From assembly GCA_051047955.1 (NCBI GenBank), contig JBPGPT010000008.1:248001-312000 (forward strand): a stretch of DNA of 64,000 bases, in the 5' to 3' direction. Origin of the DNA: Cystobasidiomycetes sp. EMM_F5. Lineage: Eukaryota. The notes below the pieces were generated by a model. The model was not told the DNA's origin. It searched no databases and worked only from the letters and a program-made list of their open reading frames with translations. The first letter of the stretch is position 1, and the number at the start of each line of letters is the position of its first letter. The position numbers and the translations under genes were made by a program. Shown piece after piece: positions 31,945-40,220 of the stretch.

Positions 31945-34302
31945 CTATTGCTTGTCCTGATTCTCGACAAAAAGCATGTCTTTGCGCTCCTTGAAATCAT
32001 AGAACAGCGGCTTGAGTTTGTTGATGCTGATGCGCTCGGTATACGCCTGACGTATGTCTTCAATTCCGTATTCGGCATCCTGCTGCTGCGGCTCGGTACC
32101 ATTGAGGAGGTGCAACGCTTGCTCTTTTAGCGACGCAGATGTCCAATCCAGCTTGCCGGTATACAGAAGTCTGGCATAATTTGGCTTTGATATCTCGGCT
32201 GCCATTTTGGTGGTACATTTCTTTGGTACGAGGGAGGGATTTTCCTTGATCCAATCGCTGAGCTTGACACGCTCATACTTTTCGAGACAGTCGTCCTCGA
32301 CAACGCAGGACCTAGCTTTTTTGAGTCTCACGAGATCAGAAAAGTGGAGAAGTGGGGTAGCGTGTACGCATGTTGTAGCAAGACGCCCTCTGTCATCCAT
32401 TGCGCGTTCGTAAAGAGGAGCAGCTCGCGTGACGTAGACTCTGCCCTTGCTGACCTTGACTGGCTTGATTGAAAAGATGCTGTGCTCGTTGTCGATACGT
32501 TCACCAGTATTCCAGACTAGAGCAGTGGCTGGTGCGCATCTTGTAACGCCGAGACGGCTTGATTCGATATCTTCATCGGTGCGATTAGCTGGAGCAGTAG
32601 CTGCAGCCGCATCTGCCAGCTCGGCTTGGCGCTGATCTTCAGCATCGCTAAGAATTGCACAGAATTGAGCACGGATAACCTTGCATGCATGATGACCGGC
32701 ATTGGCGTCAAAAGCTTTGGTGATCCAGCACTCGCGACAATGAGGACATTCTTTGAGAAAGATGCTGCGACGGGGACGATCAGCTTTGCAAAGCGCAAAG
32801 TGTTCGAGGAGGTCGTCAAGATTGCAAGTATAAGTATTCTTCGCAGAAACCGCTTCCATTGGCGCTCTACGACGCTCTTCCTTCTCCTTGTCGGAGATGC
32901 CATAGTAATTACCAGCCGCCGAGGCAGAATTGACGATGTCAGCATCCTTTGCCGGTTTAGTGTACAGCCATTGAGCATGCTCGACGCTGCCATGCAGAAG
33001 TCCCCGTGGACAAGCAGCTAGCTTGATGAGCATACCCTGTTCGCGCTGACCTCGTACCTTGTTGATGACCTCGACTACCCAGGCTGACCGTTCTTTGCTC
33101 GAAGGTGCACCAACAGCAATGACAGCAAGGGCTTTGCGTTCTTCCGAAGCTGCGTATCCAGCATTTTGGTGCTTGAGGTGCTTTACGTCAGGATCAGGAG
33201 AGTCCTCGTTCGACCTGGGCCCAAGGAAGCTGATATTTGCTTTGACGACAGCAAGTTTTGCAAGCCTGAGCTCTTCCAGGTAGCCAAGTCGGGCGGCATC
33301 TTGCATAATCAGGCTGATCAGCGAAATCAGGGCAGACTCGCGGTCGTCATTGTTCGGAATGAGGTGCGAGTGTGTTGTGACATAGATTTCAGCCAGAGTG
33401 GCCATGACCCTAGCCCGTCTGTCAAGCTCAAGCCTTACGTTGAGAGTCGATGGAATGTGATAATTGGCATACGGGTGATATTTTGCGACGTAGATAGCGC
33501 TATGCTCCGGCCTTGGACCGTAGCGCACGATGCAGGGGATGCCGATAACGGCAACGTAGTCTTTCGAGATGTACTTTAAATCGTTCCATTTGCGGCCATC
33601 GGTAAAGACAATCATATTTCTCAACGACTGGTAGGAGAACACCCCGTTGAGGAAAAGAGAGAAGTCGGCTGCAATGATATCCTTCTTGAAGATGACCTCC
33701 GGCGTATACTCCATAAAAATACGATAGATTTTGCTGCTCTCCGCAATGACGAGGTTGGGTCGGATGATGCAGAGTATACCCCAGAAGAAAATGCAGGCTA
33801 GCCAGATCAGCAAATGAGTGCAGACAATACACCAGAAATCGATGAATGCATAGTAATAATGCGAGATGAGATTCATATTGTTGGTCTTGCGAATATCGTC
33901 AACAACTTGCTGAGGGATGAAGCGCGCTTTTCGCAGTTCTAGCTGTTCGTGTTGAGCTGCAGGACCTGCTTGTGCCAGCCAATAGCCTACGTCTGCATCA
34001 AGCAAGGCCTCCCGGGGCATGTCCTTCTTGATCCATACCATATCAACCGTCCCTGTCGAATTGCAGTGAAAGGCAGAAGCGGAGTGGATGACCTCGTCGA
34101 GCGCTGCAGCTGTCGCGATGACACCAGTTTCATACTCTGGCCGTCGTCTCCAGATCTCGTACGATGCCTTGATGAAGGTATCCACTCTTGCTCGCAGAGC
34201 CAGGGTGGCGGCAGATGGAGCCTTGACTTGAACCTCAAGCTCAGACAAGCCATGACGACCAGGCAGGAGGATGGTAGTGGTGTCAGTGCTGGCCTCAGCC
34301 AT
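31945..34302 (-). CDS. Orphan 785-aa protein with a putative uracil-DNA-glycosylase-like core and a Cys/His zinc-binding motif
   Basis: Uninterrupted ORF of 2358 nt. Ordered motifs MVWIKKDMP ... FIDFW ... IIRPNLVIAES ... YVAKYHPY resemble UDG-superfamily strands and the terminal HP motif; later CPHC-x14-HHAC. The fold call is inference. Confidence 0.65.
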   Translation of the reverse strand: MAEASTDTTTILLPGRHGLSELEVQVKAPSAATLALRARVDTFIKASYEIWRRRPEYETGVIATAAALDEVIHSASAFHCNSTGTVDMVWIKKDMPREALLDADVGYWLAQAGPAAQHEQLELRKARFIPQQVVDDIRKTNNMNLISHYYYAFIDFWCIVCTHLLIWLACIFFWGILCIIRPNLVIAESSKIYRIFMEYTPEVIFKKDIIAADFSLFLNGVFSYQSLRNMIVFTDGRKWNDLKYISKDYVAVIGIPCIVRYGPRPEHSAIYVAKYHPYANYHIPSTLNVRLELDRRARVMATLAEIYVTTHSHLIPNNDDRESALISLISLIMQDAARLGYLEELRLAKLAVVKANISFLGPRSNEDSPDPDVKHLKHQNAGYAASEERKALAVIAVGAPSSKERSAWVVEVINKVRGQREQGMLIKLAACPRGLLHGSVEHAQWLYTKPAKDADIVNSASAAGNYYGISDKEKEERRRAPMEAVSAKNTYTCNLDDLLEHFALCKADRPRRSIFLKECPHCRECWITKAFDANAGHHACKVIRAQFCAILSDAEDQRQAELADAAAATAPANRTDEDIESSRLGVTRCAPATALVWNTGERIDNEHSIFSIKPVKVSKGRVYVTRAAPLYERAMDDRGRLATTCVHATPLLHFSDLVRLKKARSCVVEDDCLEKYERVKLSDWIKENPSLVPKKCTTKMAAEISKPNYARLLYTGKLDWTSASLKEQALHLLNGTEPQQQDAEYGIEDIRQAYTERISINKLKPLFYDFKERKDMLFVENQDKQ

Positions 34303-34408
34303 GTTAGAGTGTGTGTAAAAGCGGTATCGTTCAGCTGTCGCGTCAGTGGTTGTAATGAGAGTTGGTCGGAGAATGAGATTGATCGAGCTTGCTTTCAGCC
34401 AATCCGCC

Positions 34409-34429
34409 CAGCAGCAGCAGCAGCAGCAA
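34409..34429. repeat. (CAG)n microsatellite between the divergent orphan genes
   Basis: Six CAG units followed by CAA. Confidence 0.75.
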
Positions 34430-34636
34430 CTCAAGCAACATCAGCGCAGTCTGCTCAGCACCAACCTGAAGCATTCTATCGATATACAGGGTCGAGCGTA
34501 CTTGCATTCCTACCCCTATTTTCAGTGAGTACAGACCTGATACGTGTTAGGCTGGGCTTGTTTACACCTCGAAACAACACGCGTAAACGAAGCAAAAACT
34601 GATGAATGCCGTCTCACACAATGCAGCTGCGCTCTC

Positions 34637-35669
34637 ATGGCCCACCAGTCCACTTCGACCATGCCTGCGGGCGCTTCCACCTCCAAACGCGTTTACACCA
34701 CTCCTGCCGCCGTCATCGCTGAGAAACGAGTGAAATACGCTGACAAGGTTCGGTCCGAGACCGAGATAGCTGCAGAAGCTTTCAATAAGAGATACGATGT
34801 GAGGGCTGCAGAAGTGGCTGCTCTGACGGGCAAGACTATTGTCGACGGCACCCGAGCGTCAGAGAAGATGCTCAAGGTCTGGAATGAGATGCGGCGTATC
34901 GATAGTCGGCCGTCCATCACCAACCGGGAAATGACTGCCATGCCCGGCAACGACGATTTCTACAAGGCTCTACTTGATCTCTTCCTCGACCCGCTAGCAT
35001 TTGACGTAGCAAACGCTCAGTCCGTCTTTACAGACCAGTCCAAAACTCACATCGATGTAGATATGCAAGCTTCAGACACATTTGCGCGCTACTATCTTCG
35101 CCGTCTCCATTTCCAAACCCATGACGAGCTTGTCCTCTTTACAGAAAATGTCAAGCGCCTCAAACCCAAGTATGCAGGACATCTAGACATGCTTGTCAAA
35201 AGGAGCGCGGGTATGACATCGAGCACCCGCTACTTGCATTACGGCGGTTACACCATCGCAAATTCTCCTGTCGGGCGTGAAGAGGACGACGAGGAGTCGG
35301 AGGGATTCTCTTTGGCAACAACCGCCTTTCAGGTCTACACTGATCCCGAGAAATTCAATCGCAAGGTGGAGGAGTACGAAATTCACGCTCTACGATTCGA
35401 TGCCAAGGGGGTCAAACCCGCCAGAGACGATATCCGCACCGGATTCTACGAGTCGCTCGTAATTGATTCCCTTGGCTTCTACTGTCTCAACGTCGCTCCC
35501 CCTGGTCAATTCATTGACATGGTGTGCAATGAAAAGTACGAAGCGGACATGAAGTTTCTCGCGACGTATGTTCCGAAGGTGACTCAGGCAAGTGAGCAGT
35601 ATCGGCAAACGCTTACGCACAGCTGACAACGCCATGTGCAGCTCGGTCGAGCAAGAAGAGGCTGACTAA
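34637..35669 (+). CDS. Orphan protein of about 320 aa with a putative GIY-YIG-like nuclease signature
   Basis: ORF to 35626. A likely intron at 35566-35641 (GTATGT..GCTGAC..CAG) gives C-terminus ATSVEQEEAD* at 35669. Motif order RYYLR ... LHYGGYT-x7-R ... FYESLVI ... CLNVAPPG resembles the Y/Y/R/E/N layout of GIY-YIG domains (inference). Confidence 0.6.
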
Positions 35670-35793: not shown

Positions 35794-35823
35794 TATATAT
35801 GTTGAAAGAAGATCGGCTTTCAA
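35794..35823 (+). promoter_or_regulatory. TATA element and short hairpin upstream of the tRNA-Ala 5' exon
   Basis: TATATAT at 35794-35800, about 30 nt before 35829; inverted repeat TTGAAAG (35802-35808) / CTTTCAA (35817-35823). Confidence 0.5.
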
Positions 35824-35828
35824 GACTG

Positions 35829-35955
35829 GGGGAGTGAGTGGCGTACATGCGAATGGTCCCTAGACTATCACTAACAATCAAATTTAGTATAGCGCAGTTG
35901 GTAGCGCGTCCGCTTTGCATGCGGAAGGTCGTGAGTTCGATCCTTACTGTCTCCA
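35829..35955 (+). tRNA. tRNA-Ala(TGC): tRNA-Ala(UGC) interrupted in the acceptor stem by a 54-nt GT-AG intron (35834-35887)
   Basis: Exon 1 GGGGA (35829-35833) plus exon 2 (35888-35955). Acceptor GGGGATA/TGTCTCC with G3:U70; D-stem GCGC/GCGC; anticodon stem TCCGC/GCGGA with loop TT-TGC-AT; T-arm GTGAG-TTCGATC-CTTAC; discriminator A. Confidence 0.9.
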
Positions 35956-35987
35956 CTTCGAATTCATGCCAAGAGAGTTTGTCTTGG

Positions 35988-35997
35988 TTTTTCTTTT
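35988..35997 (+). terminator. Oligo-T tract, candidate RNA polymerase III terminator of the tRNA gene
   Basis: TTTTTCTTTT begins 33 nt after the discriminator base. Confidence 0.5.
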
Positions 35998-36249: not shown

Positions 36250-37652
36250 ATGGATACTGTGAAGCAAGACAAGTCGAAAAGGCGCAAACGGGATGCGATG
36301 GCTACTACCGCTCACTCAAACGATGCATCTTCTCAGCCAGCGCGACCTCCACCTATCTCTTCTTTCTCTACGACGCACAAACCGCAAAAGCCATCTGCAA
36401 TCGCAAAGGCCGGCAAAGTAGGGTTATCCAAATTTATCAAGTGACACTAGCTGAACGTTTAACGCCAGGGCCGTTTCTACACAGTCTCTATTGCTCTACC
36501 TGGCAGTATCCTTCTCAATGCGCAAAGTCCAGAACTCCGGACACATCTAGCTGGACAGATAGCCCGTACTTGTGCGATATTTTCAGTGGACGAAATCGTG
36601 GTATTTCACGAGCCAAATCATGTTGCGGTCGACACGACACGAGCGACGTATCAGCGTGGTAAATATCGACAAACGACGTCTGAGACTGGTTCAGGTGACG
36701 AAAATGACATGGACGAATTGCTATGTCGTATTTTACAGTATTTGGAAACGCCGCAGTATGTACACACTGACTCGCAGTACCGCCACAGACAACTAACGCA
36801 CTTTTGAAGATATCTCCGCAAAGCCCTCATACCCATGCATCCATCACTACGTCTGGCAGGCCTGCTCCCTCCGCTCGACATGCCACATCATTTGCGCAAA
36901 ACAGATGATGCTCTCTTCCGTGAAGGAGTCGTAGTCGAGCCACCTGCTGACTGGAGACCCTCATTCGGTCAAAGTGACACATATTCGTTCGTCGATGTCG
37001 GCTTGGAGCACTCTGTACAAGTGCCGTCAACCCTGCCTCTGACCAGCAGGGTGACTGTGCGATTAAAACCACAACGTGATTAGATTCTCTGAAGGTACAC
37101 TGACATAGACTGACATCGACAACACAGCTTCGATAGTTGCAGACAACGCACCTAAAGCAGAGAATGGGTTTGGGTGGGGCTACAAAGTCCGCAAAGCTGG
37201 CAGCGTGAGCAAGGTACTGCTGGAGTGTCCGTATGAGGGCGGTTACGATCTAGGTATTGGGACTTCCGAGCGAGGTACAGATGTGTCGGTCATGGCTGCG
37301 GAGATGCCAGAGTTCCGGTAATCCGCAACTTATACAGAGTACACTGCTATTGACTAATTGACAACAACACGCAGGCATATGCTACTCGTATTTGGCGGAT
37401 TGGCCGGTCTCGAAGTTACCATCGAAGCCGATGGAGCACTGGGCTTGTCTGCAGAAGAAGCCGGCGACGCATTTGATCACTGGATCAACGTCTGCCCAAA
37501 CCAGGGGTCTCGCACCATCCGTACAGAGGTTAGTATACCAATTCTTTCCGGTTGTCCCTGCGTCCTAACTGTAGATGCGATTCTAGGAAGCTCTGATGAT
37601 AGCCTTGTCGCGGCTCAAACCAGCCATAGAAGGAAACGGGGCGAGAGTTTAG
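36250..37652 (+). CDS. SPOUT-family RNA methyltransferase (SPOUT1/C9orf114-like), multi-exon
   Basis: VSIALPGSILLNAQ; IARTCAIFSVDEIVVF; LQYLETPQ/YLRK; AGLLPPLDMPHHL; FREGVV; GYDLGIGTSERG; LLVFGG; NQGSRTIRTE/EAL. Confidence 0.9.
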
Positions 37653-37807
37653 GATTATTCCGTGTTAATTGTGAATGTAAGGGAGGCGAGTCAGTGTGTA
37701 AACATTTTTGGTCGGCTGGTCGGCTCCACTGTGCCTGTCCAGAACTCTAGACGTCCAGTCGTGACTTCATGCGATTGTTTTGCCATCTTCCCACCCGAGC
37801 TGCCAGC

Positions 37808-40220
37808 ATGGACACTGAACAGGAGCTACCGCTGCAAGCTGTAGTGCTCGCAGACGCCTTCGAATACCAAGCACGGTATGGCCCGCTTGTCCGGGGCGGT
37901 GGGAAGGACGGCGAAGGCTGCGACAATGCTCAGCCATGGGTAGGCTGCAAACAGTAATTTGATTGTTTCAACGCTGACCACATCTCAACTTGTAGTGCCT
38001 GCTGCCTTTCCTGAACGCCCCGTTGATTGCCTGGACGCTGGAATCGCTGTCGGCTTCCAACGTACAACAAATATTCATCATAATCCGTGAAGGCGCAAAG
38101 GAATTGCAGACATGGCTAGAGTGGGCGACAGATGGCATTACCATCCAAGATACGATGAAGCTGACAGGCTCATGCGGTCATTGTGCTGCCGTTACGACAG
38201 TTCGTCTACCTACAGTCCTGCATTGCCGACCTCGACAATGGAAGTACGGATCCGATCAACGCTTGCCAGCGCAGAAGGCGATGTGTTGAGAGAGTTGGAC
38301 AATGTTCCTCTACAAGGGGACTTTCTGCTAGTTCGGGCTGGATACATGGGAAATATCGACCTTGATTCTGCTGTTAAGGCGTTCACCGTCAGGCGCAAGA
38401 AGGATCCCTCCTTATTGATGGATTGTCTCGTTGCACCGCGATCAGTAGTGTGGGTATGATGCAGAATGACACATGTCCTCGAACTGATGTCATCTTGACA
38501 GGCCGCGAGCCAAATCCTCTACACATGTACTCGCCCCTACCGGGCAACTTCTCCATTTCACGCACCATGCCCGCTTTCCGCACAGAAAGCGAATGCAATT
38601 TCCCCGAGAACTTCTTGAATCTGGTCAGGACTTGACAATCAGGACAGATCTGGAAAGTATTGGTGTCGATATCTGCAATGTCGAGCTACCGGCCCTGTTC
38701 GTCGAGAATTTCGACTATCAAAATCTACGGCCAGACTTCATACACGGCATACTAACATCCGACCTACTCACAAAGACTATACGATGCACAGTCGTTGGAG
38801 CAGCTGATAACGATGCAGCTCTGTCAGTCATTGCCGGCAGAGCAAAACCTTACGCAACCTGCGTTGGAGATTTAGCGAGCTACGATCAAAACAGCTTTGC
38901 AATATTAGCGCGATGGGCGCATCCGCTTACTCTGGATGAAACAGTGCCCGGGACGCATGAACGATACGAGCAGCGCAGGGGTCGCTTGTATTTGGGCAAA
39001 GATGTTGCACTCGCTCGCTCGTGCGTGACGGGCCCGTCTGCAGTCATTGGGCATCGATCGACCATCGGCGAGCATACGAGCGTAAGCCATAGCGTCCTCG
39101 GTCCCAATTGCCGGATCGGCAGGAACGTCACGATATCCCATTCATACATTTTCGAGGGCGTCATGGTGGAAGATGGATGTGTCATCGAAAATAGCATTGT
39201 AGGCTATGCATCGCATGTGCGATCCGGAGCCATTATTACGCAAGGCACAATCGTTGGTCCCTATGTCACACTCAGCGAAAAGAGCGTGCTGGAGAGTCAG
39301 ACTGTATCTGTCGAAGCTTATTCTAGTAGTGCGATCAGCAACGGAAGCGCCGGTAAGCAGAACCCCTAATATCGTAACAAATATGGCTGTTTCTGATGCT
39401 GTCAGCAGATGACATACATCATTTGTGGCCCAGCGAAGAGGATCGCCTGATGGAAGATGTCGATTCCGATGATGAGGAGGCGCTCGACCATCGCAATCTA
39501 CGCATGTCAAAGTTGCATCGCAACGTCAGTCACGCCTACCTATCTGACACATCCTCGGTGTCGGAGCTCTCTGATTCGTCATCATCCGATACTGATGAGG
39601 GTGAATCTCTTGCCTCTGAAGCATCCGGAGGTGATAGCGAAAATCGTATTGCGGGAATATCTGCTCTTGATACGTCAGCCGAGTCCGAAGACTTCGCCTT
39701 CTTGCAGGAGTGCCTTGCGTCTTTGGAGCGGTCATTCGGTGAAGACCATACAGTCGAAAACACTGCTATTGAACTCAAAACACTACGGATGGCATCAAAC
39801 GTAACCTTGAAGCGCGTCATCGGTGTAGTCGTTCCATTTTTGTGTAATAGAGCCCACGTCAAGATCGAAGAAAGCAATAGACAGGTTGACGAGAAGGCTG
39901 ATAATATGGTGGAAAGGTGGGGTAACCTCATCACATCGTTGACAAGCGGGCAACAAGATGGCATGGTAGATGCCCTGCTCGCTCTGCAACATCACTGCGC
40001 ATCCACAAATGTGCATCCTCGGCTTTTCGCTGCATTCTTACAGGCATACTACAATGAAGACGTCATATCGGATGATGCTGCGGTCAGCTGGGTCAAAGAT
40101 CCTAGATCACGATCTGTGGGTGACGAGGCTGGCTTGAAACTGTGGAACACTGGAGCAGCTTTCGTGAAAGCCCTCATTGAGGCCGATGACGACAGTGACG
40201 AGGATGATGAAGACGAGTAG
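37808..40220 (+). CDS. GCD6: Translation initiation factor eIF2B epsilon subunit, multi-exon
   Basis: LQAVVLADAF; CLLPFLNAPLIAWTLESL; LFVENFDYQ; hexapeptide beta-helix repeats; W2 domain (IELKTLRMASN, YYNEDVISDDA). Confidence 0.9.

Follow-up and report, generated by a model that had tools for sequence, protein, structure and literature searches.

Spliceosomal introns in non-coding RNA genes are already known; a tRNA gene as their host is new and unexpected. The hosts listed in PMC5855946 are the genes for U6, U2, U5, U1 and rRNA, in keeping with the initial annotation of this locus, which had noted mRNA-type introns in fungal snRNA genes and rDNA. For the Pol III-made U6 RNA of Schizosaccharomyces pombe, PMC5855946 describes removal of the intron by the spliceosome, and it describes many fungal U6 introns as having canonical signals and unconserved, often species-specific sequences. 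Splicing of tRNA is attributed to an endonuclease and a ligase, and not to the spliceosome (PMC10275265, PMC13149111), and the three intron types are regarded as unrelated (PMC12530127). Algal tRNA genes disrupted by introns of the bulge-helix-bulge (BHB) type have also been described (PMC3978253). Full-text searches of open-access papers and preprints turned up no description of a spliceosomal intron in a tRNA gene, although one may exist in older or paywalled work; to that extent the literature agrees with the initial annotation, which knew of no described case.

The locus analyzed here lies in a 64,000-nt stretch of DNA from Cystobasidiomycetes sp. EMM_F5 (the window), and comprises a tRNA-Ala(UGC) gene with a 54-nt insert in its acceptor stem. 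Like the fungal U6 genes, it combines a short GT-AG intron sequence with a small, structured RNA gene of Pol III type (PMC5855946). The arrangement is also U6-like: TATATA at −35, a T5 run at +32 from base 73, no terminator in the intron, and intact internal boxes. In contrast to U6, the tRNA host is not part of the spliceosome, and the usual account of how U6 introns arose, reverse splicing into an RNA at the catalytic centre, is not directly applicable to it. The 5′ exon supplies only 5 nt of the mature RNA, and the intron parts the start site from the A box. Removal by the spliceosome is described for the S. pombe intron and is proposed for that of the tRNA-Ala locus.

The introns of U1, U2, U5, U3 and lichen-fungus rRNA genes likewise have normal spliceosomal signals within structural RNA genes. 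The spliceosomal introns of U3 snoRNA genes have a branch-to-acceptor distance that averages 15 nt (PMC5832005), compared with 13 nt in the tRNA-Ala intron. However, these hosts are mostly Pol II (or Pol I) transcripts, and no tRNA is among those listed in PMC5855946. Canonical tRNA introns (position 37/38, TSEN endonuclease and ligase) likewise have to be removed before the RNA can function and also leave the A and B boxes in place; in contrast, the present insert lies at position 5/6 and has GT-AG and branch signals instead of a cut measured from the structure. The BHB-type, split and permuted tRNA genes of Cyanidioschyzon, nucleomorphs and archaea are likewise interrupted at sites other than the anticodon loop, the acceptor stem among them, and standard finders miss them as well (PMC3978253). 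Those genes need a bulge-helix-bulge fold, whereas none is present at the tRNA-Ala locus.

The tRNA-Ala(UGC) exons and the 54-nt insert

The body of the tRNA (exon 2, nt 6–73) occupies positions 35888..35955 of the + strand, and was delimited by the Rfam tRNA model, an ARAGORN cloverleaf and a count of stem pairs. The Rfam model, for which the gathering score is 29, has a single match in the whole 64 kb (35888–35949, 45.3 bits), and a permissive scan of the window (E ≤ 1) returned nothing beyond this partial match. The match covers only model positions 6–65 of 71, so that nt 1–5 are indeed lacking from the body, as the initial annotation had observed. Exon 2 contains the anticodon TGC (35916–18), A73 (35955), and, as placed by the box consensus, the putative A box (35890–35901) and B box (35934–35944).

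TTTAG, the pentamer that adjoins the body on its upstream side, would form only one of the five acceptor pairs with nt 68–72. In contrast, GGGGA at 35829..35833 (+ strand; exon 1, tRNA nt 1–5), which carries G3 and makes up the 5′ side of the acceptor stem, forms all five, and among the 1024 possible pentamers only four are able to do so. Both parts of the original proposal therefore stand: the adjoining bases cannot build the stem, and the missing GGGGA is found upstream across a 54-nt spacer. A further G at 35828 directly precedes exon 1, giving a run of five G.

ARAGORN reports no tRNA gene in the 64-kb window and none in the unspliced stretch of the locus. After in silico removal of 35834–35887, the same program reports a complete 73-nt tRNA-Ala(tgc). 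In this excised product all 21 stem pairs are standard and all 16 of the conserved positions checked are as expected (U8, A14, G18, G19, A21, U32, U33, A37, G53, T54, U55, C56, G57, A58, C61 and A73). The G3:U70, G15:C48 and G26:A44 pairs are in place, position 73 is A, and the anticodon is TGC. The G3:U70 pair is the alanine identity element of tRNA-Ala. GT..AG excision thus yields the complete tRNA that had been predicted, with G3:U70, a TGC anticodon and A73, and the prediction that standard finders would miss the gene is confirmed by the empty ARAGORN result and the partial Rfam match.

The insert between tRNA nt 5 and 6 (35834..35887, + strand, 54 nt) has the features of a spliceosomal-type intron. 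It begins with the 5′ splice site GTGAGT (35834..35839) and ends with the 3′ splice site TAG (35885..35887), which contains the first AG downstream of the branch A. The putative branch site, ACTAAC (35870..35875), has its branch A at position 35874, which is 13 nt from the 3′ end of the insert. The combination was scored by a strict rule applied to 54-mers on both strands, which specified a start of GT[AG]AGT, a CT[AG]AC with its branch A 8–35 nt from the end, a terminal AG that is the first after the branch A, and an end of [CT]AG. A single one of the 127,892 real 54-mers of the window passes this rule, and it is the spacer at 35834–35887; none passes among 2,557,840 shuffled 54-mers. A looser rule admits 5 of the 127,892 real 54-mers versus 17 of the 2,557,840 shuffled ones, and one of the five real matches is the homology-verified intron at 36756–36809. 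The donor GTGAGT, branch CTAAC and acceptor TAG named in the initial annotation are accordingly those of the only 54-nt segment in the window that passes the strict rule.

Taken with the pentamer count, these figures make it untenable that the tRNA part is a fragment that came to lie downstream of some unrelated intron; what is present is a tRNA gene with a spliceosomal-type intron. Judged by its signals and exons, the locus very probably holds a spliceosomal-type (GT-AG, U2-type) intron sequence within a genuine tRNA-Ala(UGC) gene. As the exon before the donor is exactly the missing pentamer (4 of 1024 would serve), the unit began as a tRNA gene, regardless of what transcribes it at present.

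Introns of the neighboring genes and relatives of the insert

The two next genes provide a local standard of six introns, with lengths of 51, 54, 52, 57, 52 and 53 (or 56) nt. At 54 nt, the tRNA intron falls inside this 51–57 nt range, and the earlier description of its length as typical holds for these six neighbors. Four of the introns (51–57 nt) belong to a gene for a SPOUT1/C9orf114-like putative RNA methyltransferase (36250–37750, + strand; Pfam PF02598 Methyltrn_RNA_3; PDB entry 4rg1_A, E 1.9e-23), the ATG of which lies ~300 nt downstream of the tRNA. The ends of the intron at 36756–36809 (54 nt; GTATGT, CTAAC 13 nt before the end, AAG) were fixed by alignment to the solved structure 4rg1_A, as excision restores the aligned motif, while the three further introns (51, 52 and 57 nt) were placed by reading-frame continuity only. 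The intron at 36756–36809 and the tRNA intron have the same branch geometry, with the A 13 nt from the end.

The other two introns belong to an eIF2B-epsilon gene, in which three frame blocks align consecutively to residues 88–160, 166–431 and 459–675 of 5b04_I. The best matches of this gene are fungal-type entries, and together with the short neighboring introns and their CTRAY branch sites they give the genome a fungus-like character; a protein-atlas look-up returned Eukaryota. Its introns, at 38450–38501 (52 nt; GTGGGT, CTGAT, CAG) and at 39353–39405 or –39408 (53 or 56 nt; GTAAGC, CTGAT, CAG), are bracketed by the 5b04_I alignment, and their exact ends were chosen from frame and splice signals. 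The signals of the tRNA intron are closer to consensus than those of the six neighboring introns, none of which has a GTRAGT donor and one of which has CTAAC.

Two long open frames, at 31945–34440 (− strand, 831 codons) and 34541–35626 (+ strand, 361 codons), adjoin the tRNA and match no Pfam family. Both neighbors of the tRNA gene, the upstream frame ending at 35626 and the SPOUT1-like gene, lie on the + strand, as does the tRNA.

A blastn-short search of the 64-kb window gave no second copy of the tRNA intron, its best match being 12 nt, and inspection by eye revealed neither terminal inverted repeats nor a target duplication at the intron. A segment of the intron (35846–35858, CATGCGAATGGTC) resembles tRNA nt 36–48 (CATGCGGAAGGTC), with 11 of 13 positions identical. 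Derivation of the intron from the tRNA itself was considered and set aside as not significant, as 97 of 2000 shuffles score as well (152 of 2000 under softer scoring); the likeness between CATGCGAATGGTC and CATGCGGAAGGTC is a weak hint that the intron may be tRNA-derived.

A search for relatives through the open reading frames over the locus (an antisense 70-aa frame, P0001, and a sense 73-aa frame) found none, with too few shared words among proteins of 38–126 aa. A pattern scan of metagenomes yielded 118 loci, every one a bacterial tRNA-Pro gene starting ..GAG followed by YRTAGCGCAG. Two patterns had no match among prokaryotic and viral contigs, collections in which a blank carries no weight for this locus. 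The metagenome loci L053, L057 and L088 are tRNA-Pro matches that have a 5′ flank in common with the intact gene in L096 and diverge right after the anticodon; no Rfam tRNA or intron match at gathering score was obtained for these three.

Transcription signals around the gene

A TATA-like element, TATATA, is located at 35794..35799 on the + strand, 35 nt upstream of tRNA base 1. The motif TATA[AT]A occurs 19 times in the 128,000 strand positions of the window, which corresponds to a chance of ~0.003 of finding one per 21-nt window. The element at −35 marks GGGGA as the putative start of the transcription unit, with a predicted start region and short 5′ leader at 35820..35828 (+ strand), ~25–30 nt downstream of the TATA.

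On the other side of the tRNA, the predicted 3′ trailer (35956..35992, + strand) comprises a 6-bp hairpin (35969–74 / 35982–87) followed by a T5 run (35988–92) that resembles a Pol III terminator. This run starts 32 nt past base 73 and is the first run of at least four T after the TATA element. No such run occurs between 35795 and 35987, so there is none inside the intron; the absence of T4 across ~165 nt is not significant by itself (estimated chance ~0.66). The hairpin, CCAAGA / TCTTGG, is perfect, has a 7-nt loop, begins 14 nt after the tRNA 3′ end, and continues into T5-C-T4 (35969–35997 overall). Hairpin and T run together resemble a bacterial intrinsic terminator, and the trailer, at 32 nt, is long by the standards of tRNA genes.

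The A box lies 96 nt from the TATA element, a large distance that is due to the 54-nt intron between them. In budding yeast, TFIIIC bound to the A box sets the start ~20 nt upstream. At the present locus, a start set from the A box in this manner would lie within the intron, and the transcript would lack exon 1. The overall layout of upstream TATA, T run and boxes would fit a TATA-assisted Pol III gene, and a Pol II start would fit it equally.

The intron segment 35839–35849, TGGCGTACATG, begins at +11 from G1 and matches six of the nine specified positions of the A-box consensus, TRGCNNAGTGG. Lying at roughly the normal A-box distance from the start, TGGCGTACATG may be a surrogate A box or may be a product of chance. 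The S. pombe U6 intron contains the B box.

Proposed maturation of the precursor and alternative readings

In the maturation pathway proposed here, transcription would start a few bases upstream of G1 (~35820–28), as set by the TATA at −35, and would terminate at T5, 32 nt beyond base 73. The polymerase would be Pol III, as for the intron-bearing U6 gene of S. pombe, or possibly Pol II. The spliceosome would recognize GUGAGU, ACUAAC and UAG, form a lariat at A35874, and remove 35834–35887, joining A5 to the U at tRNA position 6. The 7-bp acceptor stem with G3:U70 would be complete only after splicing, and RNase P, RNase Z, the CCA enzyme and alanyl-tRNA synthetase would act only once the stem had formed. 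Because the stem is incomplete in the precursor, end-trimming, CCA addition and charging would have to follow splicing.

The T arm (nt 49–54, 35931–35936) reads GTGAGT, the same hexamer as the 5′ splice site of the intron. In the predicted fold of the precursor, the intron GUGAGU pairs with the 3′ strand of the T stem and replaces the true T-stem strand. The T-arm hexamer could act as a cryptic donor or as a folding competitor, and the modeled pairing between intron and T stem could hinder splicing or tRNA folding.

On balance, we lean slightly toward a gene that is expressed and spliced by the spliceosome into a working tRNA-Ala(UGC). The fuller proposal, of a working eukaryotic tRNA that needs the spliceosome, with a precursor probably made by Pol III, a G3:U70 pair that exists only after splicing, and a supply coupled to the spliceosome, has about an even chance of being correct. 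As reviews exclude the spliceosome from tRNA splicing, the prior for a spliceosome-dependent tRNA is low, and the passages on tRNA splicing in PMC10275265 and PMC13149111, which describe no such tRNA, also count in favor of a possible but rather unlikely alternative, namely that this copy is disabled. The intron would then be a recent arrival in one of several tRNA-Ala(UGC) genes, brought in by intron transposition, by reverse splicing and reverse transcription, or as repair filler; the tRNA would no longer be made, either because Pol III starts inside the intron or because a short, uncapped transcript is left unspliced, and decay would be pending. The displacement of the A box by 54 nt from the upstream promoter is consistent with such a failure. 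Fungal tRNA isoacceptor genes are normally multi-copy, and the loss of one copy would be cheap. The three splice signals are of consensus strength, and every stem pair (21) and every conserved position checked (16) is intact, which argues against a disabled gene, but intact exons and perfect splice signals are also expected of a very recent, unselected insertion. A functional gene is further favored by a TATA element correctly placed for a start just ahead of exon 1, by the lack of a donor intron copy in the 64 kb (best blastn-short match 12 nt), and by the splicing of Pol III U6 precursors with such introns in fission yeast, as described in PMC5855946.

The intron might instead be spliced within a longer Pol II transcript of a neighbor, either as part of an extended 5′ UTR belonging to the SPOUT1/C9orf114-like gene or in read-through from the frame ending at 35626, with the tRNA-like exon incidental or freed by RNase P and RNase Z. 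This is improbable: while both neighbors are on the + strand, the TATA would suit Pol II equally, and Pol II transcripts are where spliceosomal introns typically occur (PMC12530127), such a transcript leaves unaccounted for an exon before the donor that is exactly the missing pentamer (4 of 1024 would pair) and a hairpin followed by a T5 run behind the tRNA, and there are upstream ATGs between the tRNA and the SPOUT1-like ATG. A protein-spliced intron of the TSEN/BHB type at a non-canonical position has a precedent in BHB introns at unusual sites that include the acceptor stem (PMC3978253). Nevertheless, it is very improbable here and was rejected, given the 5/6 rather than 37/38 position and the lack of a bulge-helix-bulge in the folds or by inspection. 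Neither orientation allows such a motif at the two junctions, the modeled folds are no more stable than those of shuffles (z −0.77 for the precursor and −0.39 for the intron), and the GT-AG, branch and length signals would become an unexplained coincidence of ~1 in 10^5 to 10^6. Finally, that a 5′-truncated tRNA pseudogene lies behind intron-like motifs by chance has a vanishingly small probability. With the spacer unique under the strict rule and only 4 of 1024 pentamers able to pair, chance is untenable; the frequency of passing shuffled sequences (0 of 2,557,840) must be multiplied by 4/1024 for the right pentamer, and these two counts effectively refute it.

If the tRNA is made by spliceosomal excision, the separation that textbooks and current reviews draw between tRNA introns and spliceosomal introns, as served by unrelated machines, would be broken, and the range of non-coding hosts (U1, U2, U5, U6, U3 and rRNA) would extend to the most abundant Pol III product. 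The gene would offer a natural test of whether and how splicing acts on short transcripts made by Pol III in which the first exon has 5 nt, and would bear on intron gain, as tRNA is never in the spliceosome's active site. Genes of this kind are invisible to ARAGORN and partly visible to Rfam, so tRNA censuses could undercount them or call them pseudogenes. In the organism itself, the supply of this tRNA would be tied to the activity of the spliceosome.
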